Shown here in pieces: positions 1 through 20,627 of a stretch of 64,000 nt of DNA. A program made the position numbers and the translations under genes. The stretch's first letter is position 1, and every line of letters starts with the position of its first letter. The notes under the pieces are model-generated. The model was not told where the DNA came from, ran no database searches, and saw only the letters and a list, made by a program, of their open reading frames with translations. The DNA is from Escherichia coli (GTDB taxonomy: Bacteria > Pseudomonadota > Gammaproteobacteria > Enterobacterales > Enterobacteriaceae): NCBI RefSeq assembly GCF_001677475.2, contig NZ_CP015229.1. One strand, 5' to 3'.

Positions 1-290
1 AGCGGATCAATACAGGGCTGGTCAGGGAGAGCAAACAGGGGAAGTTTTACGCCAAATTTAATGCCGGAGCATTGTTGCGTGGCGACATGAAATCCCGCTT
101 TGAAGCGTATGCCACGGGGATCAACTGGGGTATTTATTCCCCTAATGACTGCCGTGATCTGGAAGATATGAATCCCCGACCGGGCGGTGATGTGTATCTG
201 ACACCGATGAACATGACCACCAGTCCCTCTGCTGGCGATGACAACGGTAAGAAAAAGGAGAGTGGAGATGCAGACAAAACAGCGTCTTGA
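1..290 (+). CDS. Phage portal protein, C-terminal end (5' part outside window)
   Basis: Open frame running in from the window edge and ending just upstream of, and overlapping, the prohead protease start. Position matches HK97-type portal-protease-capsid order; the family call rests on synteny more than on recognised motifs. Confidence 0.5.
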   Translation, partial: RINTGLVRESKQGKFYAKFNAGALLRGDMKSRFEAYATGINWGIYSPNDCRDLEDMNPRPGGDVYLTPMNMTTSPSAGDDNGKKKESGDADKTAS

Positions 291-918
291 TATACCGCTG
301 AACCTGAAATCCGTCAGTGATTCTGGTGAGTTTGAAGGTTACGGCTCTGTTTTTGGTGTTAAGGACAGCCACGATGATGTGGTGATCCCCGGAGCCTTTA
401 CCACAACACTCCAGAAATGGAGCGAAAAAAAGGCGCTGCCTGCGTTGCTCTGGCAGCACCGTATGGATGAGCCCATCGGTGTGTACACCGAAATGAAAGA
501 AGATGATGTCGGGCTTTATGTCAGGGGGCGATTACTCGTTGATGATGATCCCCTGGCAAAACGTGCACATGCCCATATGAAGGCCGGTTCTTTAACCGGC
601 CTTTCTATTGGCTACATCCTGAAAGACTGGGAGTACGACCGTGAAAAAGGGGTATTCCTGCTGAAAGAGATCGACCTGTGGGAGGTCAGTCTGGTGACGT
701 TTCCTTCCAATGATGAGGCACGCATCAGCGATGTGAAAAATGCGCTGGCGCGTGGGGAGATCCCTGAGCAGAAAATCATTGAGCGGGTCCTGCGCGATGT
801 TGGACTCTCGCGAACCCAGGCCAAAGCATTCATGGCAGGGGGATATGGCGCTTTATCCCTGCGTGATGCTGAGGATGTGGATGCCGCACTGAATGCACTG
901 AAAAATCTTAAATTTTAA
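268..918 (+). CDS. Phage prohead protease (HK97 family, peptidase U35-like)
   Basis: ORF 238..918 with probable start at ATG 268 (MQTKQRL) after GGAGAGTGGAG RBS. Sits directly upstream of the major capsid gene; sequence resembles HK97-type prohead proteases. Confidence 0.75.
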   Translation: MQTKQRLDIPLNLKSVSDSGEFEGYGSVFGVKDSHDDVVIPGAFTTTLQKWSEKKALPALLWQHRMDEPIGVYTEMKEDDVGLYVRGRLLVDDDPLAKRAHAHMKAGSLTGLSIGYILKDWEYDREKGVFLLKEIDLWEVSLVTFPSNDEARISDVKNALARGEIPEQKIIERVLRDVGLSRTQAKAFMAGGYGALSLRDAEDVDAALNALKNLKF

Positions 919-1779
919 CCAGGAGAAAAATAATGGCTGACATTAAAGATGTGGAGCAGGTCGCGCAGGAGTTGCAGCAGAAGTTTGACGATTTTAAGGC
1001 AAAAAACGACAAGCGCATTGACGCGATCGAACAGGAAAAAGGCAAGCTGGCCGAACAGGTGGAAAGCCTGAACGGGCAAATCAGCGAGCTGGAGAACCTG
1101 AAAAGCGACCTGGAAAAAGAGCTGGCAGACATCAAGCGTCCGGCAGGCGGCACGCAAAATAAAGTTGCCAGTGAACACAAAGAAGCGTTTATCGGATTTA
1201 TGCGCAAGGGGCGTGAAGACGGCCTGCGTGAGCTGGAGCGTAAGGCGCTGCAGGTGGGCAATGATGAAGATGGCGGTTATGCCATTCCGGAGGAACTGGA
1301 TCGCACCATTCTGACGCTACTGAAAGATGAGGTGGTGATGCGCCAGGAAGCCACCGTGATCACCCTCGGTGGCTCGGATTATAAAAAACTGGTGAATCTG
1401 GGCGGCACAGCGTCCGGATGGGTGGGGGAAACGGATGCACGTCCAGAAACCGCCACATCAAAACTGGGTCTGATTGAACCCTTTATGGGGGAAATCTACG
1501 GCAATCCGCAGGCCACCCAGAAAATGCTCGATGATGCTTTCTTCAATGTGGAAGACTGGATCAACAGTGAGCTGGCGCTGGAATTTGCCGAACAGGAAGA
1601 AATTGCCTTTACCAGTGGCGACGGCAGCAAAAAACCAAAAGGTTTTCTGGCTTACGAGTCCACCGATGAAGATGACAAGACCCGTGTATGAGACGACAAT
1701 AACTCAGTCCGCCTGGCGCCGATTATTCTGGCCGGTTTTGTAACCTGAGTGTCATTTACATGATCCAACAGGAAATGGC

Positions 1780-3279
1780 GTGACGCTCAATACTTCTCAG
1801 GTCAGTTACTATATGACTCAGCGTAAGAAAGGTATAACTCAGCATATCTCGGCCATGAAGGCTGGTATCTCAGTCCGTTCTGGTCGTCGGATCGAAAAAG
1901 GAGAGTGGGCAAAAAACAGTGTTCGGCACTGGCGCACACGCAAAGATCCTCTGGAAGCTGTGTGGGACAGCATGCTTGTTCCTCTGTTGAAAGAGAGGCC
2001 GGCTCTGACACCAACAACTCTACTGGAGATGCTACAGGATAAATATCCCGGCCAGTACCCCAACAGCCTTCGAAGAACAATGCAACGGCGGGTTCGCGAA
2101 TGGAAACTACAGTATGGTACAGAGCAGGAGGTCATGTTCCGCCAGCAACATCAGCCCGGCCTGCGAGGCCTGTCGGACTTTACTGAACTGAAAGGTGTAG
2201 TTGTCACCATCGCCGGTAAGTTGTTGGCGCATAAGTTGTATCACTTCCGTCTGGAATGGAGCCACTGGAGCTGGATGCGGGTTGTTCTGGGTGGTGAGAG
2301 CTTCTCTGCTCTGGCTGAAGGCCTGCAGGAAGCCCTCGGACAACTGGGCGGAGTGCCGGTAGAACATAAAACGGACAGCCTGAGGGCAGCATGGAAACAA
2401 CAGGGCGAAGATGGACGCCGCGAGCTGACTGAGCGTTATGCTACTCTCTGTCAGCACTACGGAATGCAGGGCGTACACAATAATGCCGGTCGGGGCCACG
2501 AAAATGGCTCGGTTGAAAGTGCCCACGGACATCTGAAAAGGCGTATCTGTCAGGCGCTGATACTGCGGGGCAGTAACGACTTCAGCACCATAGAAGAATA
2601 TCAGGCCTTCATCACTCAGCAGGTTATGCGGCACAACCGTAACAATCAGGATCTGGTCAAGGAAGAACGTCTTCATCTGAAACCGCTGCCGCTTCGTCGC
2701 AGTGCTGACTATGATGAGCTGACTGTGAGGGTTAGTCGCAGCAGTACCATCAATGTGAAGCACGTCGTCTACAGCGTACCTTCCCGGCTTGTAGGTCAAC
2801 TGTTACGGGTCAGGTTATGGGACGATCGTCTGAGCTGTTACGTTGGCAGCAGCGAGGTCATGAGCTGCCCTCGCGTCAGACCAGAAAAAGGGAAGACGCG
2901 GGCCCGTCGTATCGACTTCCGACATGTGATCGACAGTCTGGCAAAAAAGCCCGGTGCGTTCTGCCATGCAACGCTGAGAAATGACATCCTGCCGGACGAT
3001 GAATGGCGGAGGCTGTGGCGTCGCTTATGTAATCATCTGGAGCCCGATATGGCAGGAAGGCTGATGGTACATGCCCTGAAACTGGCTGCAGGATACGACG
3101 ATATCTCAGTCGTGGCAAAAGGTATGGAGCAGATGCTGAATACCCCGGGAAACGTGGATCTGCACCGGCTGATGCGCTTCCTGGGTATAAAAGAAAAGGC
3201 GTTGCCGGTAGTCAATGTGATACAGCATAACCTGAGCAGTTATGAGCAACTACTGCGTGGCAAGGGAGGTTCGCAGTGA
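1780..3279 (+). CDS. istA: IS21-family transposase IstA
   Basis: 499-aa ORF directly upstream of and overlapping the IstB-like gene; GTG start at 1780, alternative ATG at 1813. Confidence 0.75.
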   Translation: MTLNTSQVSYYMTQRKKGITQHISAMKAGISVRSGRRIEKGEWAKNSVRHWRTRKDPLEAVWDSMLVPLLKERPALTPTTLLEMLQDKYPGQYPNSLRRTMQRRVREWKLQYGTEQEVMFRQQHQPGLRGLSDFTELKGVVVTIAGKLLAHKLYHFRLEWSHWSWMRVVLGGESFSALAEGLQEALGQLGGVPVEHKTDSLRAAWKQQGEDGRRELTERYATLCQHYGMQGVHNNAGRGHENGSVESAHGHLKRRICQALILRGSNDFSTIEEYQAFITQQVMRHNRNNQDLVKEERLHLKPLPLRRSADYDELTVRVSRSSTINVKHVVYSVPSRLVGQLLRVRLWDDRLSCYVGSSEVMSCPRVRPEKGKTRARRIDFRHVIDSLAKKPGAFCHATLRNDILPDDEWRRLWRRLCNHLEPDMAGRLMVHALKLAAGYDDISVVAKGMEQMLNTPGNVDLHRLMRFLGIKEKALPVVNVIQHNLSSYEQLLRGKGGSQ

Positions 3280-4031
3280 GCAATATCCATCACCTTGAAC
3301 ATAGCCTGCGTAAACTACGCCTGACACGAGTTGGAGCTGAATGGCACGCTCTGGAAAAACGAGCGCTGGCAGAAGGCTGGACACCATCGCGCTATCTTCT
3401 GACGCTATGCAATGAAGAACTCCTGTGGCGCGAGAGTGAAAAACTGCGTCGTTATAAAAAGGAGGCCCGGTTGCCAGTTGCCAAAACGCTGAGCGAATAC
3501 GACTTCAGTCAGGTGCCGGAACTGAATGGAGCTCAGTTCCGGCAACTCTGTGAAACGACAGACTGGGTTGATGCAGGAGAAAACGTTCTGCTGTTCGGAG
3601 CCAGCGGGTTGGGGAAAAGCCATCTGGCGGCAGCGATCGTGGATGGCGTAGTAGGTCAGGGCTACCGGGCCCGGTTCTACAGCGCAGGAGAGCTGTTGCA
3701 GGAACTACGTAAAGCCAGAGCTCAGTTGAAACTGAATGAGCTGCTACTGAAACTGGATCGCTACCGGGTGATAGTGGTGGATGATCTTGGCTATGTCAAA
3801 CGCGATAGTGCCGAAACGGGTGTGCTGTTCGAGTTAATAGCGCATCGCTATGAACGTGGGAGCCTGGTGATAACCAGTAACCATCCGTTCAGCATGTGGG
3901 GCAGCATCTTCGTGGATGAGACTATGGCGGTGGCTGCGGCAGACAGGCTGATCCATCACGGATATATGTTCGAACTGAAAGGGGAAAGCTACAGGAAAAA
4001 GACAGCGAAGGCAGTAACAAGCGCGACTTGA
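3276..4031 (+). CDS. istB: IS21-family helper ATPase IstB
   Basis: 251-aa ORF with P-loop GASGLGKSHLAAA and a DnaA/IstB-like AAA+ layout (Walker B-like VIVVDDLGY). Confidence 0.85.
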   Translation: MSNIHHLEHSLRKLRLTRVGAEWHALEKRALAEGWTPSRYLLTLCNEELLWRESEKLRRYKKEARLPVAKTLSEYDFSQVPELNGAQFRQLCETTDWVDAGENVLLFGASGLGKSHLAAAIVDGVVGQGYRARFYSAGELLQELRKARAQLKLNELLLKLDRYRVIVVDDLGYVKRDSAETGVLFELIAHRYERGSLVITSNHPFSMWGSIFVDETMAVAAADRLIHHGYMFELKGESYRKKTAKAVTSAT

Positions 4032-4616
4032 TGTCGCCCTGAAGGGTGCGGCCAGTATAGTTGGCGCGAGTCGGCAAAACTAGTTGACGTCTAATACCCG
4101 TGCGTTTGGCAAACTTCAGCACATTGCTTCCGGTGCGGCTTCCGGCGTGACTACCGATGCGATCATTAAACTGATTTACACCCTGCGCAAGGCGCACCGC
4201 AGCGGCGCGAAGTTCATGATGAACAACAGCAGCCTGTTTGTCATTCGTCTGCTGAAGGATAACGACGGAAATTATCTGTGGCGTCCGGGTATTGAGCTGG
4301 GGCAGCCTTCTTCACTGGCGGGGTATGGCATCGTTGAGAATGAGCAGATGCCGGATATTGCTGCCGATGCAAAAGCTATTGCGTTTGGTAACTTCAAACG
4401 CGGCTATACCATCGTTGACCGCATCGGTACCCGTATCCTGCGCGATCCGTACACCAACAAACCGTTTGTGGGCTTTTATACCACCAAACGAACCGGCGGT
4501 ATGCTGGTGGATTCTCAGGCGATTAAGCTGATGAAGATCGGTGCTGCAACCCGCCAGAAAGCCGCTGAGTAATGCAGTTTTTTATGCCCGCACAGTATTG
4601 CGGGCAGGAGTTTCTG

Positions 4617-4934
4617 ATGGCAGCAATAGTGGAAAAACTCAGGGCGCAGTGCCGTATTGATACAGATGATGCAACTGATGATGAGTTACTGATGCTGTAT
4701 TTCCGGGCTGCCTGCCGCAAGGCAGAAAATTTTATCAACCGTAAGCTTTATGAGGAGACGGTGCCGGAGGGGGATCCAGAAGGGGTGCTTATAGCTGATG
4801 ATGTTTTGCTGGCGCTTATGTTGCTGGTCGGACACTGGTACGAAAACAGGGAAAATTCCTCAGATGTCAGCAAGGCACCAATCCCGTTTGGTTTTTCTTC
4901 TCTGCTGGAGCCTTATCGTTTTATTCCTTTGTAG
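4617..4934 (+). CDS. Head-tail connector / DNA-packaging protein (phage gp6-like)
   Basis: ORF 4572..4934 with probable start at ATG 4617 after AGGAG; small acidic protein directly downstream of the capsid gene. Confidence 0.6.
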   Translation: MAAIVEKLRAQCRIDTDDATDDELLMLYFRAACRKAENFINRKLYEETVPEGDPEGVLIADDVLLALMLLVGHWYENRENSSDVSKAPIPFGFSSLLEPYRFIPL

Positions 4935-4942
4935 GAGGAACC

Positions 4943-5281
4943 ATGCAGGCGGGCAGATTACGTGATCGCGTAATTATTCTGAATGTCACCACCGCCCGCT
5001 CTCCGTCAGGGCATCCGGTGGAGACGGTGACGGAGGGAGCTACCGTATGGGCAGAAGTTAAGGGTATCAGCGGGAGGGAGATAATCTCAGGCGGAGCAGA
5101 AACCGCTCAGGCTACGGTCAGAGTCTGGATGAGATTCCGGCGCGATGTGACAGCGACTTCACGTCTGAAAGTGCTGACCGGTGCATTTAAAGGGGCAATT
5201 CTGGGTATAGAAGGTCCACCAATACCGGATGCACGCGCTACCCGGCTTGAAATACTCTGCAGCCTGAAGGGGAATGTGTGA
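4943..5281 (+). CDS. Head-tail adaptor / head closure protein
   Basis: 112-aa ORF following the gp6-like gene with RBS AGGAGG; conserved position in HK97-like head modules. Confidence 0.6.
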   Translation: MQAGRLRDRVIILNVTTARSPSGHPVETVTEGATVWAEVKGISGREIISGGAETAQATVRVWMRFRRDVTATSRLKVLTGAFKGAILGIEGPPIPDARATRLEILCSLKGNV

Positions 5282-5727
5282 TGGATTTCAGTCTTGATTT
5301 TTCAGGTCTGGCGGATATTGCACGGGATCTGGAGACGCTCAGCAGGGCAGAAAACAATAAGGTACTGCGCGATGCCACCCGTGCCGGTGCTGAAGTTATG
5401 CGGGATGCAGTTGCTGAACGTGCGCCGGAGCGAACCGGGAAACTGAAGAAAAATGTGGTTGTTCTCACTCAGCGTTCAAAGCGTCGGGGGGAAATTATCT
5501 CGGGTGTCCACATTCGTGGACGGAACCCGCGAACCGGAAACAGTGATAACAGCATGAAAGCCAGCGATCCCCGAAATGCGTTTTACTGGCGCTTTGTGGA
5601 GCTGGGAACGATAAACATGCCCGCGCATCCGTTCATTCGCCCGGCATTCGACACGACAGAGGAACTGGCAGCACAGATTGCCATACAGCGAATGAATCAG
5701 GCTATTGATGAGGTCTTAAGTAAATGA
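5278..5727 (+). CDS. HK97 gp10-like phage protein (tail completion / neck)
   Basis: 149-aa ORF with ATGA start/stop overlap to the upstream gene; N-terminal MMDFSLDFSGLADI resembles the HK97 gp10 family. Confidence 0.6.
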   Translation: MMDFSLDFSGLADIARDLETLSRAENNKVLRDATRAGAEVMRDAVAERAPERTGKLKKNVVVLTQRSKRRGEIISGVHIRGRNPRTGNSDNSMKASDPRNAFYWRFVELGTINMPAHPFIRPAFDTTEELAAQIAIQRMNQAIDEVLSK

Positions 5728-6068
5728 GGGAGACCGCACTGTATTCCCTGCTGTCTCAACTGGCCGGAGGACAGGTTTATCCTTATGTGGTCCCGCTGAC
5801 GGAGGGAAAGCCTGCGGTATCTCCGCCGTGGCTGGTGTTTTCTGTGGTGTCTGACACGGCGTCTGATGTGCTTGATGGTCAGGCTGAATCAAGAATTACC
5901 GTGCAGATCGATGTCTGGGCAACAGTACCTGATGACGCAGATGATATCCGTGAGCAGGCGCTTGATGCGGTAAGGCAACTTGCACCCTCCGTTATTTCTA
6001 AAACTCAGGGTTATGATCCTGATTCCCGTCTGAGCAGAGCCACGCTTGAATTTCAGGTAATAGCCTGA
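5724..6068 (+). CDS. Tail terminator / DUF3168-like tail component
   Basis: 114-aa ORF, translationally coupled, located just before the major tail protein gene. Confidence 0.5.
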   Translation: MRETALYSLLSQLAGGQVYPYVVPLTEGKPAVSPPWLVFSVVSDTASDVLDGQAESRITVQIDVWATVPDDADDIREQALDAVRQLAPSVISKTQGYDPDSRLSRATLEFQVIA

Positions 6069-6127
6069 GGTCGTTAATGATTTTACCCACCCGCCGCTGG
6101 CGGGTTTTTTATTTTCAGGAGACGAGT

Positions 6128-6832
6128 ATGTCCTCTAATTTTGAGCGTTCGCAACTGACGAAAATTATGATTTCGTCTGCACCGGTAACAGCAGAAACCT
6201 TGGATTCTGCCAGCTATCTTGGCCTGAGCTGTACAATCAAAGAGGTGCAGTTTACCGCAGGACAAAAGCAGGATATTGATGTCACCACGCTGTGTTCTGT
6301 TGAGCAGGAACATATTAACGGCCTTGGTGCCGCGTCAGAGATTTCCATGTCAGGCAACTTTTACCTCAATGCTGCCCAGAACGCGTTGCGCAGTGCCTAT
6401 GACAATGACACCACGTATGGCTTTAAAGTTATTTTTCCGTCAGGCAACGGATTTACCTTTATGGCAGAGGTGCGTCAGCATACCTGGTCTGCAGGAACCA
6501 ATGGTGTTGTGGCTGCAACGTTTTCCCTGCGCCTGAAAGGTAAACCTGTGCTGACGACAGAGCCGCTGAAAGTGAAGGTCGATTTAAACAGCACGCTGCA
6601 GGTTTCTGCCGGAGCAAAACTCGAAATGGTGGTTGAGGCTGCCGGTGGTGTGCCGCCTTATTCTTATGTCTGGAAGAAAGGTGGTTCTCCTGTTTCCGGA
6701 CAGACGGCGGCAACGTTCAGTAAGGCATCAGCAGCATCCGGTGATGCCGGTGCGTATACCTGCGAGATTTCTGATTCAGCAAGCCCTGTTAACAAGGTGA
6801 CCTCCACTTCCTGCACTGTTACCGTCAGTTAA
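6128..6832 (+). CDS. Major tail protein with C-terminal Ig-like (Big_2-like) domain
   Basis: ORF 6077..6832 with probable start at ATG 6128 after AGGAGACGAG. The C-terminus has an Ig-like decoration domain as in lambda gpV. Confidence 0.7.
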   Translation: MSSNFERSQLTKIMISSAPVTAETLDSASYLGLSCTIKEVQFTAGQKQDIDVTTLCSVEQEHINGLGAASEISMSGNFYLNAAQNALRSAYDNDTTYGFKVIFPSGNGFTFMAEVRQHTWSAGTNGVVAATFSLRLKGKPVLTTEPLKVKVDLNSTLQVSAGAKLEMVVEAAGGVPPYSYVWKKGGSPVSGQTAATFSKASAASGDAGAYTCEISDSASPVNKVTSTSCTVTVS

Positions 6833-7218
6833 TGAGGATAGATGTGATGACTAAAAATATCCGTAATCTGGCACTGGCAACGATGTCGGGGTTTCGTCAT
6901 AAAACCGTTGATGTGCCTGAATGGGAAGGAGCAACGGTTGTGTTACGGGAACCTTCTGCAGAAGCCTGGTTGCGCTGGCAGGAGATCGTTAAAGCCAGGG
7001 AAGATGATACATCGCCATCCGTTGCAGAGCGTGCCCGCCGAAATCTTGAGGCGGACGTTGAACTGTTCATTGATGTTCTGTGTGATACCGGGCTGCAACC
7101 CGTATTTTCAGAGGATGATCGTGAACAGGTGATTGCCGTGTATGGCCCGGTGCATGCCCGACTTCTTCGCCAGTCTCTGGAACTGATCAGTGGTGCCGGA
7201 GAGGTTAAAAAAAAGTAG
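6832..7218 (+). CDS. Tail assembly chaperone (gpG-like)
   Basis: Lies between the major tail and tape measure genes and ends ...GEVKKK* on an A-run. Alternative start ATG 6847 has a better RBS (GAGGA). Confidence 0.75.
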   Translation: MRIDVMTKNIRNLALATMSGFRHKTVDVPEWEGATVVLREPSAEAWLRWQEIVKAREDDTSPSVAERARRNLEADVELFIDVLCDTGLQPVFSEDDREQVIAVYGPVHARLLRQSLELISGAGEVKKK

Positions 7219-7520
7219 CGCTTCCGGGGATGCGTTTTCTGATGATGCTGGCGCTCAGGATGGGGCGCACATTGTCAGAGTTACGCCGGGAAATGTCCGC
7301 ATCAGAAATCATGATGTGGGCAGAATTTGACAGGTTCAGCCCGCTGGGGGACGAACGGGCTGATATCCGGGCTGCCCAGATTGTTTCAGCTGTTTACGGT
7401 GCGCAGGGAGTCAAAGTGCCACTGAATGATGCACTTCTTCAGTGGGAGAAGGAGCAGACAGAAGGTGCCTCAGATCCATTTGCCGGAATGGAAAACGCGC
7501 TTTTAATAGTGTCTCAGTGA
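7209..7520 (+). CDS. Tail assembly chaperone -1 frameshift extension (gpT-like part of the G-T fusion)
   Basis: The -1 frame is open from 7209 through the ORF 7230..7520 and is entered at the slippery heptamer A AAA AAG (7209-7215). Confidence 0.7.
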   Translation, partial: KKVALPGMRFLMMLALRMGRTLSELRREMSASEIMMWAEFDRFSPLGDERADIRAAQIVSAVYGAQGVKVPLNDALLQWEKEQTEGASDPFAGMENALLIVSQ

Positions 7521-7560
7521 GTCAACATAACCGCTTCGGCGGTTTTTTTTCGTCCGGAGA

Positions 7561-10500
7561 ATGAGTGTGGCGACATTACGTGAACTGATTATTAAAATCT
7601 CGGCAAACTCCCGGTCCTTCCAGTCGGAGATCGCCCGGGCTTCGCGTATGGGGCAGGATTACTACCGCACCATGCAGAACGGAGGCCGACAATCCGCTGC
7701 TGCATCACGTGAAATGCGGCGTGCACTGGCAGAAGTGACGGATCAGATAAATACGGCGAAGTCTTCGGCACTGAATATGGCGGGGGCATTTGCCGGGGCT
7801 TTTGCCACCGGACATCTTATTTCCCTTGCTGATGAGTGGAATTCAGTAAATGCCCGTCTGAAACAGGCTACGCAATCCAGTGATGATTTTCAGGCATCAC
7901 AACGTGAATTAATGGCAATCAGCCAGAGAACGGGGACGGCTTTTTCAGATAACGCCAGTCTTTTTGCCCGCTCTGCTGCTTCCATGCGGGAGTATGGCTA
8001 CAGTTCTGAGGAGGTACTGAAAGTCACCGAGGCGATCTCCACGGGCCTGAAATTATCCGGTGCCAGTACAGCAGAAGCCAGTTCGGTGATCACGCAGTTC
8101 AGCCAGGCACTGGCGCAGGGAGTGCTGCGCGGTGAAGAGTTTAACGCCGTGAATGAGAGCGGTGATCGTGTTATTCGTGCGCTGGCTGCGGGAATGGGCG
8201 TTGCCCGTAAGGATCTGAAGGCTATGGCGGATGATGGAAAGCTGACCGCCGATAAGGTTGTTCCTGCGTTGATTAGTCAGCTTGGGGCGTTGCGTGATGA
8301 ATATGCAGCAATGCCTGATACGGTTTCATCCTCTGCAACCAAAGTTGAAAACGCCTTTATGGCCTGGGTTGGTGGTGCGAACGAGGCAAGCGGAGTGACG
8401 AAGACGCTTTCCGGAGTGCTGAATGGTGTTGCAGGCAATATTGATACCGTTGCAACCGCTGCCGGTGCTCTGGTTGCCGTCGGGGTAGCCCGATATTTGG
8501 GCAATATGGCGTCTTCTGCTGGAGCTGCAACTGCCGGATTAATTACCGCAGCCAGAAACGAAGTGGCTCTTGCGGAAGCGCAGCTCCGGGGAACACAGAT
8601 AGCAACAGCCAGGGCGCGTGCGGCGGTTTATCGTGCGCAACAGGCGGTTGCGGCTACCCGTGGTACTGAAAGGCAGGCAGCCGCAGAAGCGAAACTGGCT
8701 GCTGCCCAGGCGTCACTTACCCGTAATATTGCGGCCAGAACAGCAGCACAGACAACGCTGAATACTGTCACGTCAGTGGGGAGTCGTCTGTTAAGTGGGG
8801 CACTGGGGCTGGTTGGTGGTGTGCCGGGGCTTGTCATGCTGGGGGCTGCGGCCTGGTACACGATGTATCAGAATCAGGAGCAGGCCAGAGAATCTGCACG
8901 CCAGTATGCCGCAACAATCGACGAAATTCGCCAGAAAACGTCGGCAATGTCGCTTACTGAAGCGTCAGATAATGAGGAAAAGACGCGACAGGCACTGAAG
9001 GAGCAGAACAGGTTAATTGACGAGCAGAAAAGTAAGATTAAATCCTTACAGGAAAAAATTGCTGGCTATCAGTATGTGCTGGCAAACCCGGGCTGGACAA
9101 CCGATAACGGTTTTATGATTAACCACATGACGTCGGTAAAAACTGTCACAGAAGGGCTTGCAGAAGCAACAAATCAACTGGCAGTTGAACAGTCTCGCCT
9201 CACTCAAATGCAGGGCAAAGCGCAATCCATTCAGGATGTGCTTGCCGGGCTGGAGGAGCGACGGGTGGCGTTGATCCGTCAACAGGCGGCGGAACAAAAT
9301 AAAGCGTATCAGTCCCTGTTGATCATGAATGGGCAGCATACCGAGTTTAATCGTCTTCTCGGGCTTGGTAATGAGTTACTTCAGCAGCGTCAGGGGCTGG
9401 TGAATGTACCATTACGACTGCCACAGGCCACCCTGGATGATAAACAGCAGAATGCGCTGAATAACAGCGAGCGCGAACTGGCTCTGTCCCGCCTGAAGGG
9501 GGAAGCCCGTGAGCGTGCCCGACTGGGTTATGCTGCGGATGATCTCGGCTTTGTGGGAGAGGCGTATCAGACAGCCAGACAGAATTATATCAATAACTCA
9601 CTGGATGCCTGGCGAAATAACCAGGCAAATAAACCCAAAGCGCATAAAAAGACCGAAGCGGAAAAAACAGAAGATATTTATAAACGGCTGATTAAACAGC
9701 AGAAAGAGCAGATAGCACTGGCAGGGCAGAATACTGAACTGGCTAAGATGAAATATCAGGTCAGTCAGGGCGAATTATCAACCCTGTCAGAAGCGCAGAA
9801 AAAAACGCTTTTGCAGAATGCAGCACTCATCGACCAGAAAAAGATTCGTGAGCAGCTTGCTGCGTATGAGAGCAGTCTGGCGGACAGTAATGCCAGTGCC
9901 CGGGCATCTGACGAAGCGCAGTTGCTGGGATATGGTGAAGGCTCACGGATGCGTGAACGACTCCAGGAAATGTGGAGTATCCGGCAGACGTTTGAGCAGA
10001 AAAATAACGAGCTGCTGAGACAGTATCAGGCCGGAGAAATTGAAGAAGCCCTGTGGAAACAGGAGAAAGAACTGAATAAAAAATATCTGGAAGAGCGTCT
10101 CGGCGATCAGCAGGATTATTATGCAAAGGCTGATGCTTTACGCAGTAACTGGAATGCCGGACTCCAGGAGGGACTGACCAACTGGGCAGACAGTGCCACC
10201 GATTATGCTTCACAGGCGGCAGATGCTGTCGTTTCCACGATGGACGGGCTGGTATCAAATATTTCCGATGCACTGGCCGGAAATGTTGTGGACTGGAGAA
10301 ACTGGGGGAGTTCAATTCTCCAGGAAGTTTCAAAAATTCTGATGAACGCTGCCATCGTTAACGGGCTGAAGTCACTTTCCAAAAGCATGTCCGGTGCCGG
10401 AGGATGGCTTGGTACGGTCGGCGACTGGCTTTCCGGTGCAGTGGCAAACGCAAAAGGTGGTGTTTATACATCGGCAAATCTGAGTGCTTACAGTAACACC

Positions 10501-10806
10501 ATTGTGGATACCCCGACGTATTTTGCTTTTGCGAAAGGTGCCGGGCTGATGGGCGAGGCAGGGCCTGAAGCTATCATGCCACTGACTCGGGCAGCGGACG
10601 GCTCTCTTGGAGTCAGAGCCATTGGCAATGTGAATGGTGGCGGTGGATTTGTTTATTCTCCCGTGTATCACATCAGTATTCAGAATAAAGGGAGCAATGG
10701 CGAGATAGATACGCAGTCAGCCAGGGGGCTGGTGGATCTGATCGACAGCAGGGTTGTGTCAATTATGCAGTCATCACGTCGGGACGGAGGATTATGCAGT
10801 GCCTGA
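7561..10806 (+). CDS. Tail tape measure protein
   Basis: 1081-aa ORF directly after G/GT. Ala/Gln-rich, coiled-coil-like, with a Gly-rich C-terminal region. Confidence 0.9.
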   Translation: MSVATLRELIIKISANSRSFQSEIARASRMGQDYYRTMQNGGRQSAAASREMRRALAEVTDQINTAKSSALNMAGAFAGAFATGHLISLADEWNSVNARLKQATQSSDDFQASQRELMAISQRTGTAFSDNASLFARSAASMREYGYSSEEVLKVTEAISTGLKLSGASTAEASSVITQFSQALAQGVLRGEEFNAVNESGDRVIRALAAGMGVARKDLKAMADDGKLTADKVVPALISQLGALRDEYAAMPDTVSSSATKVENAFMAWVGGANEASGVTKTLSGVLNGVAGNIDTVATAAGALVAVGVARYLGNMASSAGAATAGLITAARNEVALAEAQLRGTQIATARARAAVYRAQQAVAATRGTERQAAAEAKLAAAQASLTRNIAARTAAQTTLNTVTSVGSRLLSGALGLVGGVPGLVMLGAAAWYTMYQNQEQARESARQYAATIDEIRQKTSAMSLTEASDNEEKTRQALKEQNRLIDEQKSKIKSLQEKIAGYQYVLANPGWTTDNGFMINHMTSVKTVTEGLAEATNQLAVEQSRLTQMQGKAQSIQDVLAGLEERRVALIRQQAAEQNKAYQSLLIMNGQHTEFNRLLGLGNELLQQRQGLVNVPLRLPQATLDDKQQNALNNSERELALSRLKGEARERARLGYAADDLGFVGEAYQTARQNYINNSLDAWRNNQANKPKAHKKTEAEKTEDIYKRLIKQQKEQIALAGQNTELAKMKYQVSQGELSTLSEAQKKTLLQNAALIDQKKIREQLAAYESSLADSNASARASDEAQLLGYGEGSRMRERLQEMWSIRQTFEQKNNELLRQYQAGEIEEALWKQEKELNKKYLEERLGDQQDYYAKADALRSNWNAGLQEGLTNWADSATDYASQAADAVVSTMDGLVSNISDALAGNVVDWRNWGSSILQEVSKILMNAAIVNGLKSLSKSMSGAGGWLGTVGDWLSGAVANAKGGVYTSANLSAYSNTIVDTPTYFAFAKGAGLMGEAGPEAIMPLTRAADGSLGVRAIGNVNGGGGFVYSPVYHISIQNKGSNGEIDTQSARGLVDLIDSRVVSIMQSSRRDGGLCSA

Positions 10807-11140
10807 GTCTGAAGTTTTTAACTGGATCCCCCGCGAGGGGATGGAGACGACACGAAAGCCATCTGTTATTACGGTAAAGTTCGGTGACGGATATGAACAG
10901 CGACGGGCTGGTGGTCTGAATGCAGATCTGAAAACGTTTAAACCGGTATTTCGTGTCACGGATGAATATTCCCGTGCCGCGCTGGACAGTTTTTTATCCC
11001 GTCATGCCGGGATGCGTGCTTTTTTGTGGCGTCCGCCAAAATATAACAGGACCGTCCGGGTTGTCTGCAGGGAGTGGAGTATTTCGGATAATGCCATGTA
11101 TACCGATTTTAACTGTACCTTTGAAGAGGTCACTCACTGA
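10754..11140 (+). CDS. Minor tail protein (lambda gpM-like)
   Basis: Shares motifs with lambda M (VKFGDGYEQR, FLWRPP). The true start may be GTG 10799, which would avoid the 50-bp overlap with the tape measure gene. Confidence 0.8.
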   Translation: MCQLCSHHVGTEDYAVPESEVFNWIPREGMETTRKPSVITVKFGDGYEQRRAGGLNADLKTFKPVFRVTDEYSRAALDSFLSRHAGMRAFLWRPPKYNRTVRVVCREWSISDNAMYTDFNCTFEEVTH

Positions 11141-11838
11141 TGCAGGATATACAGCAGGAAACACTCAATGAGTGCACTAAATCGGAGCAATCCGCGCTGG
11201 TCGTGCTCTGGGAAGTCGATCTGACGGAGGTCGGCGGAGATCGTTATTTCTTCTGTAATGAGCAGAACGAAAAAGGTGAACCAGTCACCTGGCAGGGGCG
11301 GCAGTATCAGGCGTACCCCATTCAGGGGAGCGGCTTTGAGATGAACGGTAAGGGCAGCAGCGCACGTCCCACACTTAAGGTATCTAACCTGCACGGCATG
11401 GTCACCGGTATGGCGGAAGACCTGCAGAGTCTGGTCGGCGGAACGGTGGTCAGGCGTAAGGTTTACGCCCGTTTTCTGGATGCGGTGAACTTCGTCAACG
11501 GAAACAGTGACGCCGATCCGGAGCAGGAGGTGATCAGCCGCTGGCGCATCGAGCAGTGCAGCGAACTGAGCGCTGTCAGTGCCTCTTTTGTACTGTCCAC
11601 ACCGACTGAAACGGATGGTGCTGTTTTTCCGGGGCGCATCATGCTGGCTAATACCTGCACCTGGACCTATCGCGGTGATGAGTGCGGTTATAACGGTCCG
11701 GCGGTCGCGGATGAATATGATCAGCCGACGTCCGATATCACGAAGGATAAATGCAGCAAATGCCTGAGTGGCTGTAAGTTTCGCAATAACCTCGGCAACT
11801 TTGGCGGTTACCTTTCCATCAACAAACTTTCGCAGTAA
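11140..11838 (+). CDS. Minor tail protein (lambda gpL-like)
   Basis: 232-aa ORF with a C-terminal Cys cluster (CSKCLSGC); position and size match lambda L. Confidence 0.85.
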   Translation: MQDIQQETLNECTKSEQSALVVLWEVDLTEVGGDRYFFCNEQNEKGEPVTWQGRQYQAYPIQGSGFEMNGKGSSARPTLKVSNLHGMVTGMAEDLQSLVGGTVVRRKVYARFLDAVNFVNGNSDADPEQEVISRWRIEQCSELSAVSASFVLSTPTETDGAVFPGRIMLANTCTWTYRGDECGYNGPAVADEYDQPTSDITKDKCSKCLSGCKFRNNLGNFGGYLSINKLSQ

Positions 11839-11842
11839 TCCC

Positions 11843-12586
11843 ATGACAGAGACAGAATCAGCGATTCTGGCGCACGCCCGGCGATGTGCGCCAGCGGAGT
11901 CGTGCGGCTTCGTGGTGAGAACGCCGGAAGGGGAAAGATATTTTCCCTGCGTGAATATCTCCGGTGAGCCGGAGGAGTATTTCCGGATGGCTCCGGAGGA
12001 CTGGCTGCGGGCAGAAATGCAGGGTGAGATTATGGCGCTGGTCCACAGCCACCCCGGTGGTCTGCCCTGGCTGAGTGAGGCCGACCGGCGGTTGCAGGTG
12101 CAGGGTGATTTGCCATGGTGGCTGGTCTGCCGGAGAGCGATTCACAAGTTCCGCTGTGTGCCGCATCTTACCGGGCGGCGCTTTGAGCACGGGGTGACGG
12201 ACTGTTACACGCTGTTCCGGGATGCTTACCATCTGGCGGGGATTGAGATGCCGGATTTTCATCGTGAGGATGACTGGTGGCGTCACGGTCAGAATCTCTA
12301 TCTGGATAATCTGGAGGCCACGGGGCTGTATCAGGTGCCGCTGTCAGCGGCGCAGCCGGGCGATGTGCTGCTGTGCTGTTTTGGTTCATCGGTACCGAAT
12401 CATGCAGCCATTTACTGCGGTGATGGCGAGCTGCTGCACCATATTCCTGAACAACTGAGCAAACGAGAGAGGTATACCGACAAATGGCAGCGACGCACAC
12501 ACTCCCTCTGGCGTCACCGGGCATGGCACGCATCTGCCTTTACGGGGATTTACAACGATTTGGCCGCCGCATCGACCTTCGTGTGA
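11843..12586 (+). CDS. Tail assembly protein K (lambda gpK-like; MPN/JAB plus NlpC/P60 domains)
   Basis: ORF 11768..12586 with start at ATG 11843 (MTETES). Contains a JAMM-like HSHPGG motif. Confidence 0.85.
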   Translation: MTETESAILAHARRCAPAESCGFVVRTPEGERYFPCVNISGEPEEYFRMAPEDWLRAEMQGEIMALVHSHPGGLPWLSEADRRLQVQGDLPWWLVCRRAIHKFRCVPHLTGRRFEHGVTDCYTLFRDAYHLAGIEMPDFHREDDWWRHGQNLYLDNLEATGLYQVPLSAAQPGDVLLCCFGSSVPNHAAIYCGDGELLHHIPEQLSKRERYTDKWQRRTHSLWRHRAWHASAFTGIYNDLAAASTFV

Positions 12587-13131
12587 AAACGGGGGCTGAA
12601 GCCATCCGGGCACTGGCCACGCAGATCCCCGCATTTCGACAGAAACTGAATGAGGGCTGGTATCAGGTGCGCATTGCAGGGCGTGATGCAGGTGAAACCG
12701 AATTATCTGCCCGTCTTAATGAGCCGCTGGCAAATGGTGCCGTGATCCACATCGTACCGCGTCTGGCGGGTGCCAAAAGTGGCGGTATTTTTCAGGCGGT
12801 GCTGGGGGCGGCGCTGATTGCGGTGGCATGGTGGAACCCTGTGGGCTGGCTGGGTGCCGCGGCTGTATCGGGCATGTATGCGGCAGGGGCCAGTATGATC
12901 CTGGGCGGAGTGGCGCAGATGCTGGCACCGAAAGCCAGGACGCCCACGGCAGCAAGTACAGATAACGGCAAACAGAACACCTATTTCTCCTCACTGGATA
13001 ACATGGTTGCCCAGGGCAATGTTCTGCCCGTTCTGTACGGTGAAATGCGCGTGGGGTCGCGGGTGGTCTCTCAGGAGATCAGCACGGCAGACGAAGGGGA
13101 TGGTGGTCAGGTTGTGGTGATTGGTCGCTGA
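12484..13131 (+). CDS. Tail assembly protein I (lambda gpI-like)
   Basis: 215-aa ORF overlapping the end of K, with a hydrophobic Gly/Ala-rich C-terminal half as in gpI. Alternative start ATG 12523. Confidence 0.8.
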   Translation: MAATHTLPLASPGMARICLYGDLQRFGRRIDLRVKTGAEAIRALATQIPAFRQKLNEGWYQVRIAGRDAGETELSARLNEPLANGAVIHIVPRLAGAKSGGIFQAVLGAALIAVAWWNPVGWLGAAAVSGMYAAGASMILGGVAQMLAPKARTPTAASTDNGKQNTYFSSLDNMVAQGNVLPVLYGEMRVGSRVVSQEISTADEGDGGQVVVIGR

Positions 13132-13190
13132 TGAAAAACGTTTATGTGAAACCGCCTCCGGGCGGTTTTGTCGTTTATGGAGCGTGAGGA

Positions 13191-16100
13191 ATGGGTAAAG
13201 GCAGCAGTAAGGGGCATACTCCGCGCGAAGCGAAGGACAACCTGAAGTCCACGCAGTTGCTGAGTGTGATCGATGCCATCAGCGAAGGGCCGGTTGAAGG
13301 TCCGGTGGATGGATTAAAAAGCGTGCTGCTGAACAGTACGCCAGTGCTGGACAGTGAGGGGAATACCAATATCTCCGGCGTCACGGTGGTGTTCCGGGCC
13401 GGTGAGCAGGAGCAGACACCGCCGGAGGGATTTGAATCCTCTGGCTCCGAGACGGTGCTGGGTACGGAAGTGAAATACGACACGCCGATCACCCGGACCA
13501 TCACGTCGGCAAACATTGACCGACTGCGTTTTACCTTCGGCGTGCAGGCACTGGTGGAAACCACCTCAAAGGGGGACAGGAATCCGTCGGAAGTCCGCCT
13601 GCTGGTTCAGATCCAGCGTAATGGTGGCTGGGTGACGGAAAAAGACATCACCATTAAGGGCAAAACCACCTCGCAGTATCTGGCCTCGGTGGTGGTGGGT
13701 AACCTGCCGCCGCGCCCGTTCAATATACGGATGCGCAGGATGACGCCGGACAGCACCACAGACCAGCTGCAGAACAAAACGCTCTGGTCGTCATACACCG
13801 AAATCATCGATGTGAAACAGTGCTACCCGAACACGGCACTGGTCGGCGTACAGGTGGATTCGGAGCAGTTCGGCAGCCAGCAGGTGAGCCGTAATTATCA
13901 TCTGCGCGGGCGCATTCTGCAGGTGCCGTCGAACTATAACCCGCAGACGCGGCAATACAGCGGTATCTGGGACGGAACGTTTAAACCGGCATACAGCAAC
14001 AACATGGCCTGGTGTCTGTGGGATATGCTGACCCATCCGCGCTACGGCATGGGGAAACGTCTTGGTGCGGCGGATGTGGACAAATGGGCGCTGTATGTCA
14101 TCGGCCAGCATTGCGATCAGTCGGTGCCGGACGGTTTTGGCGGCACGGAGCCGCGCATCACCTGTAATGCGTACCTGACCACACAGCGCAAGGCGTGGGA
14201 TGTGCTCAGTGATTTCTGCTCTGCGATGCGCTGTATGCCGGTATGGAACGGGCAGACGCTGACGTTCGTGCAGGACCGACCGTCGGATAAGGTGTGGACC
14301 TATAACCGCAGTAATGTGGTGATGCCGGATGATGGTGCGCCGTTCCGCTACAGCTTCAGCGCCCTGAAGGACCGCCATAATGCCGTTGAGGTGAACTGGA
14401 TTGACCCGAATAACGGCTGGGAGACGGCGACAGAGCTTGTGGAGGACACGCAGGCCATTCTCCGTTACGGTCGTAACGTCACGAAGATGGATGCCTTTGG
14501 CTGTACCAGTCGGGGGCAGGCACACCGCGCCGGGCTGTGGCTGATTAAAACAGAACTGCTGGAAACGCAGACCGTGGATTTCAGCGTCGGCGCAGAAGGG
14601 CTTCGCCATGTGCCGGGCGATGTTATTGAAATCTGCGATGATGACTATGCCGGTATCAGCACCGGCGGGCGCGTGCTGGCGGTGAACAGCCAGACCCGGA
14701 CGCTGACGCTCGACCGTGAAATCACGCTGCCATCCGCCGGCACCACGCTGATAAGCCTGGTTGACGGAAGTGGAAATCCGGTCAGCGTGGAGGTTCAGTC
14801 CGTCACCGATGGCGTGAAGGTAAAAGTGAGCCGTGTTCCTGACGGCGTTGCAGAATACAGTGTGTGGGGGCTGAAGTTGCCGACGCTGCGCCAGCGCCTG
14901 TTCCGCTGTGTGAGTATCCGTGAGAATGACGACGGCACGTATGCCATCACCGCCGTGCAGCATGTACCGGAAAAAGAGGCCATCGTGGATAACGGGGCGC
15001 ACTTTGACGGCGACCAGAGCGGCACGGTGAATGGTGTCACGCCGCCCGCGGTGCAGCACCTGACCGCCGAAGTCACCGCAGACAGCGGGGAATATCAGGT
15101 GCTGGCGCGCTGGGACACGCCGAAGGTGGTCAAGGGTGTGAGCTTCCTGCTTCGCCTGACCGTGGCAGCGGATGACGGCAGTGAGCGGCTGGTCAGCACA
15201 GCCCGGACGACGGAAACCACATACCGCTTCAGGCAGCTGGCGCCAGGAAATTACAGTCTGACGGTCCGGGCGGTAAATGCCCGGGGACAGCAGGGGGATC
15301 CGGCGTCGGTATCGTTCCGGATTAACGCCCCGGCAGCGCCTGCCACAATTGAACTGATACCGGGGTATTTTCAGATAACGGCGGTCCCGCGTCTTGCGGT
15401 GTATGACCCGACGGTGCAGTTTGAGTTCTGGTTCTCGGAAAATCAGATTACGGATATCCGGCAGGTTGAAACCACAGCCCGCTATCTCGGTACGGCGATG
15501 TACTGGACAGCTGCCAGTATTAATATCAGGCCGGGCCATGATTATTACTTTTATATCCGCAGTGTGAACATCGTCGGTAAATCAGCGTTTGTGGAAGCTG
15601 TTGGCCAGCCGGTTAATGATGCTGAGGTGTATCTCAATTTTTTTGAAGGGAAAATAAACAGCACCCTGCTGGGACAGGAGCTGAACGATCGTATTAATGC
15701 CTCGGCATTGCGCAGTGAAGTTGAGCAACTGGAGGATGAGATCAATCAGCAGATAGAGAGTGATATTGCTGAAGTGACCCAAAAAATCGGGGAGACAGAA
15801 AACAGCCTCACACAGCTGGTTGCGAAAAAAAATGATGAGCTGTCACTGGGTATATCACAGGTGAGCCAGAGAGTGGATAACGTCAGCAGCGAACTCACGC
15901 AGACGGTCAGTCAGAGTAATGAGGAGAATGCACGCCAGATAGCGCAGGTTCGCCAGTATGTGGATCAAAAAAGCAGTGAAATCATGACGACAACGGACCA
16001 AAAGCTGGGAGATCAGGAGGCCACCATCCAGCAGATACAAAAGGTTCAGACGGACACCAGTAATAACCTGAACAGTATGTGGGCCGTGAAACTGCAGCAG

Positions 16101-16445
16101 ATGCAGGATGGTCGCCTTTATATTGCGGGTATCGGTGCCGGTATTGAGAATACCCCTGACGGTATGCAGAGCCAGGTGCTGCTGGCGGCAGACAGGATTG
16201 CGATGGTTAATCCTGCGAATGGTAATACAACACCCTTGTTTGTGGCTCAGGGGGATCAGCTGTTCCTGAATGAGGTTTTCATGTCCAGGGCGACGATTGA
16301 TTTTGCGGAAATTACGGGGGTTCTTCGTTCTTCGGGATTTGAAGTCAGGGGACAGGGAGGCTGGGATCTGAGCCGGGAACTGAACTGCTTCAGGGTCGAT
16401 GATGAAAACAATGTCATTCGGGTGAGAATGGGCAGGTTACTCTGA
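13191..16445 (+). CDS. Host specificity / tail tip protein J (central tail fibre)
   Basis: 1084-aa ORF after K and I. Conserved gpJ-like N-terminal two-thirds, fibronectin-like middle region, and a divergent coiled-coil C-terminus. Confidence 0.9.
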
Positions 16446-20539: not shown

Positions 20540-20627
20540 TGGCGGAAGCGCAGAGATTCGAACTCTGGAACCCTTTCGGGTCGCCGGTTTTCAAGACCGG
20601 TGCCTTCAACCGCTCGGCCACACTTCC
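20540..20627 (-). tRNA. serT: tRNA-Ser (anticodon UGA)
   Basis: Reverse complement reads GGAAGTGTGGCCGAGCGGTTGAAGGCACCGGTCTTGAAAACCGGCGACCCGAAAGGGTTCCAGAGTTCGAATCTCTGCGCTTCCGCCA: 88 nt with long variable arm and encoded CCA. Confidence 0.95.

Follow-up and report, generated by a model that had tools for sequence, protein, structure and literature searches.

The region considered here is the tail module of an HK97-like prophage of Escherichia coli. It belongs to a continuous stretch of 64,000 nucleotides (contig NZ_CP015229.1 of assembly GCF_001677475.2), called the window below. According to the list of open reading frames and the PHROG matches, the genes follow each other in the order major tail gene, G, T and tape measure gene, with the two small ORFs of a G/GT arrangement lying in between. 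The module consists of the following features.

6128..6832, + strand: major tail protein gene with a C-terminal Ig-like domain (PHROG 158, E 7e-110); AGGAG stands before ATG 6128
6847..7218, + strand: tail assembly chaperone gene G, 123 aa, read in the 0 frame and ending GEVKKK-TAG (PF06222 Phage_TAC_1)
7215..7520, + strand: T segment of the predicted G-T fusion in the -1 frame, VALPGMRFLMM...LIVSQ, 101 codons plus stop (PF06223 Phage_tail_T, Minor tail protein T)
7529..7552, + strand: putative terminator-like hairpin between T and the tape measure gene (AACCGCTTCGGCGGTT followed by T8), found as a consensus scan match
7561..10806, + strand: tail length tape measure protein gene (PHROG 339, E 0)

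Relatives in RefSeq carry an equivalent 705-nt CDS of the major tail gene. The true start of G is likely to be ATG 6847, which stands behind a Shine-Dalgarno (SD) sequence, GAGGA, at 6834-6838 and gives the 123-aa protein known from RefSeq relatives. The assignment of both small genes rests on several independent profiles. G matches PHROG 344 and, at E 2.6e-49, PDB entry 2OB9, the HK97 tail assembly chaperone, and T matches PHROG 337. When the two halves are joined into a single G-T protein, PF06222 covers residues 1-123 (E 1e-56) and PF06223 covers residues 151-219 (E 1e-18). A further family, PHROG 14766, has 224 positions, of which G matches 1-121 and T matches 126-220; because this family spans G and T, the two halves are already one protein in phage annotation. 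A search of NCBIfam with G and T returned no family for either.

In this copy the prophage is probably defective. Inserted into its major capsid gene is an IS21-family element with a transposase gene (1780..3279), a gene for an IstB-like ATPase (3276..4031) and imperfect terminal inverted repeats (1683-1734 and 4049-4100). The capsid gene is thereby split into 933..1691 and 4084..4572, and its flanks are contiguous in phage phiP27. Because of this insertion, the site described below may lack selection or productive expression in this host.

Anatomy of the G-T junction

The original prediction placed a programmed -1 ribosomal frameshift at the end of G, and the elements on which it was built can be read directly from the letters. 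The region 7180-7240 (+) contains GGT GCC GGA GAG GTT AAA AAA AAG TAG CGC TTC CGG GGA TGC. In the translation, the ORF that runs from 6832 to 7218 (+) has the C-terminus GEVKKK*, encoded by GAG GTT AAA AAA AAG TAG, so the predicted end of the chaperone gene agrees with both the sequence and its translation. The last 0-frame codons of G are AAA 7207-09, AAA 7210-12, AAG 7213-15 and TAG. The elements that delimit the junction are listed here.

7206..7208, + strand: TAA in the -1 frame, seen in the -1 translation; 5' limit of the zone that permits a shift into the T frame
7209..7215, + strand: slippery heptamer A_AAA_AAG, read from the sequence, in the 0 frame of G and inside a run of eight A's (A8, 7207-7214)
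7216..7218, + strand: 0-frame stop TAG, read from the sequence, which abuts the 3' end of the heptamer and ends G; a possible pause element

The heptamer therefore stands in the 0 frame, as had been claimed, since its last two codons are the AAA and AAG codons of G. The -1 frame is open from 7209 to a stop at 7518-7520 and is in phase with ATG 7230, which bears out both the predicted run into the downstream ORF and the predicted lack of a -1-frame stop between 7209 and 7230. Because TAA 7206-7208 closes the -1 frame on the 5' side, the switch into the T frame is confined to the 10 nt between the opening of the -1 frame and the stop of G (7209-7218), and the heptamer lies inside this zone. The heptamer as such is not rare. 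AAAAAAG was counted 22 times in the 64-kb window, against 11 expected, so that its significance comes from position and conservation and not from mere occurrence.

Any -1 slip within 7209-7218 gives ...GEVKKK-VALPGMRF, with three lysines. The predicted fusion of G and T is supported. The junction originally written as GEVKK- was one lysine short, and GEVKKK-VALPG is the correct form. The fusion is predicted to have 224 aa (about 24.7 kDa), and G alone has 123 aa. The predicted junction peptide is VKKKVALPGMRFLMMLALRMGRTLSE; trypsin cuts inside KKK, and the tryptic peptide VALPGMR is encoded in the -1 frame by the stretch that lies 5' of and over ATG 7230.

Conservation of the slip site and the explanations that compete with it

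The junction was compared across 133 loci, comprising 80 close relatives from IMG/VR, 46 loci from GTDB genomes and additional phage records. The 46 GTDB loci come from different species, and their G proteins share 46-72% identity with G. In 131 of the 133 loci, T is in the -1 frame relative to G. Both exceptions are changes in the length of the A-run. In L016 the run is A7 and G continues into the +1 frame, and in L121, a Symbiopectobacterium assembly, the run is A9 and G and T are fused in frame. When the fusion was used as a tblastn query, it was found as two pieces in different frames in every listed phage record that carries both halves. Three single-ORF G-T proteins (P0001-P0003) were considered as natural fusions, treated as errors or rare variants and kept out of the evidence: P0001 and P0003 show more frame changes elsewhere in the gene and each comes from a single short contig, while P0002 implies a 10-nt deletion.

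In a protein alignment, 15 diverse G proteins all share the last lysine of the window's G. At the nucleotide level, the 131 loci fall into 57 distinct junctions, with G identities of 29%-100%, and in all 57 the invariant lysine is encoded by AAG with an A before it. This choice does not follow the general codon usage of these genes. Elsewhere in the same G genes, lysine is encoded by AAA 234 times and by AAG 85 times (27% AAG), whereas the lysine of the slip site is always AAG. The codon before this AAG always ends in A, and the residue that it encodes varies (K, E, A, V or G). The heptamer at the slip position takes several forms among the 57 junctions, namely A_AAA_AAG (about 40 junctions), G_GAA_AAG, G_GGA_AAG, A/G_GCA_AAG and G_GTA_AAG. 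The comparative set thus shows a slip site that drifts between A_AAA_AAG, G_GAA_AAG, G_GGA_AAG and the non-canonical NCA/GTA_AAG around a fixed A_AAG core. The position of the slip, its frame and the codon choice are kept across Enterobacterales and Burkholderia phages.

A 0-frame stop follows directly after AAG in 41 of the 57 distinct junctions. It does so in all eight junctions in which the codon before AAG cannot re-pair (GCA_AAG_TAA and GTA_AAG_TAA), and these eight keep the -1 architecture. This distribution suggests a contribution of the adjacent stop, which may help shifting by making the ribosome pause.

A run of eight A's also invites an explanation at the level of transcription. RNA polymerase could add one A at A8 7207-7214, and transcripts with nine A's would encode GEVKKK-VALPG, the same fusion as the frameshift product, with ribosomal shifting playing a minor part. 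The run reaches the length (An, n>7) that is implicated in programmed transcriptional realignment (PMC3711429), and runs of nine A's slip efficiently (PMC5009743). Run-length variants do occur in assemblies, as in L016 (A7) and L121 (A9), and a run of A6 or A7 would follow from some called ORFs (P0001 and P0006-P0008). The comparative data point the other way. A-runs at the slip site range from 3 to 8 across homologs, and relatives with runs of only 3, 4, 6 or 7 keep the -1 architecture; what is conserved is the in-frame A_AAG and not the length of the run. The invariant use of AAG instead of AAA as the last codon matters for slippage of tRNA-Lys and not for slippage of the polymerase. Since homologs have 3-7 A's and an ortholog that shifts at 7% in a reporter has only six, polymerase slippage cannot be the mechanism of the family. 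As the principal explanation of the window's fusion it is regarded as improbable. It could nevertheless contribute in the clade of the window, since runs with n>7 are implicated, and the A8 run of the window might add a transcriptional component to a ribosomal shift.

A second explanation needs no fusion at all. T could be made alone, by independent initiation or by termination and reinitiation at ATG 7230 (or at 7242/7245). In-frame ATGs are indeed found 12-27 nt past the TAG, and G and T are separate CDS in GenBank or RefSeq for nearly all close relatives. The start codons are, however, poorly kept. The original prediction gave the downstream ORF as 7230..7520, and its frame and end hold, but ATG 7230 is not conserved as a start: L052 has GTG in its place, most relatives have a codon there that is no start codon, and RefSeq places the start of T at the equivalent of ATG 7242. 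The Met of the conserved 'FLM' is Leu in L095 and L122. No convincing SD sequence precedes the candidate ATGs.

The stretch in front of these ATGs also speaks against an independent start. The -1-frame peptide after the slip is conserved as V-x-x-P-x-x-x-F-L-M-x-L-A-L-R. Over the first nine codons of the -1 frame, mean entropy at codon positions 1, 2 and 3 is 0.86, 0.87 and 1.42, and the onset of third-position variability in this frame coincides exactly with the slip site. From there to the ATGs, the codons evolve as -1-frame coding sequence, with an invariant Pro codon. Because this stretch shows -1 periodicity and is thus coding, it can be reached only from G. Experiments on other phages agree, since the reporter of an ortholog yielded the fusion as a GST-containing species (PMC3711429) and lambda genetics show that T must be linked to G (PMC5009743). 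That T is initiated independently is unlikely, and as a full replacement for the fusion this is given very little probability.

It might also be thought that the heptamer is only the lysine-rich C-terminus of G, coincidental or decayed, and without function in a defective prophage. The number of copies of AAAAAAG in the window and the interrupted capsid gene can be cited for this. Chance, however, predicts no conservation of A_AAG, whereas position, frame and codon choice are conserved in Enterobacterales and Burkholderia phages. The frameshift cassette itself is intact, and the relative L007 from IMG/VR has an identical junction. Coincidence or decay is accordingly considered next to negligible.

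Relation to known frameshift systems and proposed mechanism

Frameshifting of the G/GT type in the tail chaperone genes of long-tailed phages is reportedly a -1 class described by Levin in 1993 and by Xu, Hendrix and Duda in 2004. Judged by its sequence, the locus of the window is orthologous to gp13/gp14 of HK97, and lambda G/T is a remoter analog.

The likeness to HK97 (NC_002167) is close. The fusion is 61.5% identical, the Pfam families, the gene position and the -1 relation are the same, and the slip falls on the same aligned Lys AAG codon. The HK97 genes gp13/14 carry an annotated join, with the remark 'translated due to a -1 frameshift', and an equivalent -1 frameshift join is annotated for 69/69' of Burkholderia phage Bcep176. 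The two loci differ in detail. The heptamer of HK97 is G_GAA_AAG within GGGAAAAG, and G ends 5 codons further downstream there, whereas A_AAA_AAG in the window is followed at once by TAG. T and the tape measure gene are separated in HK97 by a moron gene, gp15, and in the window by the terminator-like hairpin only.

Another counterpart of the junction is found in phage YYZ-2008 and an E. coli O157 lambdoid prophage, which have A_AAA_AAG_TAG at the same position; between YYZ-2008 and the window, the fusion is 63% and G is 67% identical. The flanks differ. Upstream, YYZ-2008 reads AGA AAA AAG (A6) where the window reads GTT AAA AAA AAG (A8), and downstream it reads CCC GCC CGG where the window reads CGC TTC CGG. 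In YYZ-2008 the -1 frame is open from 18 nt before the heptamer, and in the window from 3 nt before it.

The junction of YYZ-2008 has already been examined experimentally. Antonov et al. (PMC3711429) described a cluster of phage tail assembly chaperones (GeneTack 'Phage_TAC') with 41 genes similar to HK97, and two of its members gave 6% and 7% frameshifting in an E. coli GST-MBP reporter. The insert that gave 7% -1 frameshifting reads ...AGA_AAA_AAG_TAG_CCC... (PMC3711429 Table S2), and it matches phage YYZ-2008 (L006:746) exactly; the second insert tested there is of the G_GGA_AAG type. In the work of Sharma et al. (PMC4066793), cluster A_AAA_AAG_25 includes ECs1801, given as 'tail assembly chaperone [true]'. 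Because the orthologous cluster of the site has been described and tested, the site itself counts as already known, and its interpretation is supported. The class to which it belongs has been characterised thoroughly.

Lambda offers a functional parallel. The window shares with it the proposed mechanism, the order V-G-T-H and the T family PF06223. Lambda is unlike the window in its heptamer, G_GGA_AAG, and in its G, which belongs to another Pfam family, PF06894. Pairwise BLASTP of the window's proteins against lambda G and T was not significant, and only the Pfam profile of T connects the locus with lambda. In lambda, the G:GT ratio is about 30:1 and both G and the fusion are needed for tail assembly; lambda G binds the tape measure protein and T recruits the major tail protein, and neither is found in virions (PMC5009743).

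The heptamer of the window is, as originally pointed out, that of the E. coli dnaX gene, and A_AAA_AAG ranks with the heptamers that are most prone to shifting in E. coli (PMC5009743, PMC4066793). The slippage logic of tRNA-Lys is also shared with dnaX, which produces gamma and tau (PMC5009743). In dnaX, about 50% of ribosomes shift with the help of an SD-like element on the 5' side and a stem-loop on the 3' side (PMC3711429). The window differs from dnaX in that no such stimulators are conserved in its family, and in that the shifted product is the longer protein in the window and the shorter one in dnaX. In one reporter, A_AAA_AAG gave 0.29% when no stimulator was present, 4.3% with that of IS911 and 39% with that of IS3 (PMC4066793 Table S3), and the values for lambda's G_GGA_AAG were almost identical (PMC4066793).

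Stimulatory elements were looked for on both sides of the slip site. RNAalifold found 0 consensus pairs in 44 diverse junctions. In the window, the 85 nt on the 3' side (7216-7300) fold at -33.3 kcal/mol, with a marginal z of -1.9 relative to shuffled sequences. The outer stem of this candidate downstream structure is broken by substitutions in close relatives, and the candidate was rejected. The same holds for the one locally conserved hairpin, GCGCUC-N6-GGGCGC, about 36 nt from the slip site, in which five of six pairs are broken in 8-15 of the 44 junctions and no covariation is seen. On the 5' side, the heptamer of the window is preceded by GGAG and GAGG (together GGAGAGG) at distances of 7 and 4 nt. 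As a conserved element, an SD-like stimulator was also discarded, with GGA replaced by GGC or GGT (synonymous Gly codons) in the 95% clade and the SD core present in 29 of 57 junctions. Overall, the 57 junctions (44 for structure) gave no conserved SD-like element or stem-loop of the kind that makes up a dnaX- or IS3-type stimulated signal.

Taken together, the site very probably directs programmed -1 ribosomal frameshifting of the G/GT type in the tail module of an HK97-like siphophage, at low efficiency and with a 224-aa G-T protein as product beside G. The original reading of the site as a programmed frameshift is consequently upheld, as far as sequence comparison reaches, by gene order, protein families, the -1 relation, the heptamer and its conservation. 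The anatomy of the site, the homology of both halves and the conserved frame relation with its A_AAG slip site are matters of observation; the later steps are conditional. Most ribosomes would translate G (6847..7218) and stop at TAG 7216-7218 to give the 123-aa protein, and a few per cent would slip back by one base on A_AAA_AAG 7209-7215. At this point, the single E. coli tRNA-Lys would re-pair from AAG to AAA, while the P-site tRNA-Lys would re-pair from AAA to AAA. The shifted ribosomes would then read GTA GCG CTT... in the -1 frame as far as 7520 and complete the 224-aa fusion with the junction GEVKKK-VALPGMRF. That this exact sequence shifts at a few per cent is suggested by analogy with its tested orthologs. 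The roles of the two products are likewise drawn from analogy, in this case with lambda. G and the G part of GT would bind the tape measure protein, the T part would recruit the major tail protein, and a fixed low GT:G ratio would be needed for tail assembly. A G : G-T ratio set by low-efficiency frameshifting would let siphophages build tails of the right length.

It is possible, but tentative, that the essential conserved signal is not the canonical heptamer and is instead the tetranucleotide A_AAG, usually abutting a 0-frame stop. Peptidyl-tRNA-Lys would slip from AAG to AAA while the ribosome waits at the stop, and the stop would act as the stimulator. This would explain why the -1 architecture is kept in relatives that have GCA_AAG_TAA or GTA_AAG_TAA and in which re-pairing of the preceding codon is impossible. 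It would also explain the difference between 7% for the native A_AAA_AAG_TAG and 0.29% for the bare heptamer, two values that come from different reporters.

Distribution and annotation

The practical value of the programmed frameshift reading lies in annotation. A 1.6-kb segment of the tail module is present in 901 of 5,426 complete E. coli genomes, and 11 phage records of E. coli match it at 95-98% identity. RefSeq gives the two halves as separate CDS, 'phage tail assembly chaperone' and 'phage tail assembly protein T', with no join between them. In the RefSeq and GenBank records examined, G and T are annotated apart, T is given an arbitrary start and there is no ribosomal-slippage join, so that their protein sets lack the predicted 224-aa product. 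One GenBank phage record divides the same region into three small CDS.

Possible slippage outside the canonical heptamer

The slip sites of related loci do not all follow the X_XXY_YYZ pattern. HK97 has its annotated -1 frameshift on G_GAA_AAG because the 0-frame at this place (L003:763-769 in the collected HK97 locus; NC_002167 around 7834-7840) reads CGG GAA AAG. The site is located within GGGAAAAG and is an imperfect match to the canonical heptamer, and the stop codon of G, the gene for the tail assembly chaperone, lies five codons further downstream. In eight relatives from Klebsiella, Pantoea and Silvania, the canonical heptamer is missing, and the following junctions are found instead:

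around positions 1836-1890 of each locus: GCA_AAG_TAA (L096, L108, L110, L123, L126, L128, L131)
around positions 1836-1890 of the locus: GTA_AAG_TAA (L130)

The codon that precedes AAG, GCA or GTA, is unable to re-pair in the -1 frame. Nevertheless, the -1 architecture is retained in these relatives, and a TAA stop directly follows AAG in all eight of them. This pattern suggests that slippage would involve a single tRNA on A_AAG, helped by the adjacent stop.

Length variants and annotation of the chaperone locus

Public assemblies contain length variants of the A-run, both among the collected loci (L016 and L121) and among protein-database ORFs (P0001-P0003 and P0006-P0008). Two are placed as follows:

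L016:1861: A7 variant
L121:1854: A9 variant

With A7, G continues into the +1 frame, which gives ORFs of 159-160 aa, and A9 or A6 results in an in-frame fusion of G with T, the -1 frame segment. For P0002, a 10-nt deletion that joins G and T is implied. Either sequencing errors or genuine mutations at a homopolymer hot spot could account for such variants.

The longest ORF of G starts at ATG 6832 and overlaps the stop of the major tail gene (window 6832-6849). ATG 6847, with GAGGA upstream, is the start of the 123-aa form annotated in relatives. The annotation of the G-T locus is inconsistent, and one case is the record of phage vB_EcoM-606R7 (ON470580.1, L001:2348-3021), which divides the region into three small CDS that overlap one another and are named "tail assembly chaperone", in place of G plus a joined G-T.

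The surroundings of the locus and the mosaic prophage

The block of the major tail gene, G and T is flanked by two strong terminator-like hairpins with T-runs:

6089-6115: after the tail terminator/completion gene and before the major tail gene
7529-7552: after T and before the tape measure gene

At the corresponding places in HK97, putative terminators and a moron (gp15) are annotated.

Compared with phiP27 and HK97 over window 1-16445, the prophage is a mosaic. Its head protease and capsid genes are ~95% identical to those of the Stx2e phage phiP27, and its tail chaperone genes are HK97-like, with 61.5% protein identity. The tail segment 6000-7600 shows 95-98% identity to a large group of E. 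coli prophages with different head genes. The major capsid gene is broken by an IS21-family insertion sequence (window 1686-4097):

933..1691 and 4084..4572: two pieces of the major capsid gene
1683-1734 / 4049-4100: inverted repeats
1780..3279 and 3276..4031: transposase and IstB/DnaC-like ATPase ORFs

The repeat ACCCG is present at each end of the element, and the flanking sequences are contiguous in phiP27. Capsid production by this prophage is probably no longer possible.

Further features lie downstream:

13191..16445: large J-like tail gene
20540-20627, - strand: tRNA-Ser (anticodon TGA)
39430-39852, + strand: cspA thermoregulator (Rfam match)
50536-50613, - strand: naRNA4 (Rfam match)

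The tRNA gene, ~4 kb past the J-like gene, may mark the attachment side of the prophage. The region beyond it, with both Rfam matches, is presumably host chromosome.
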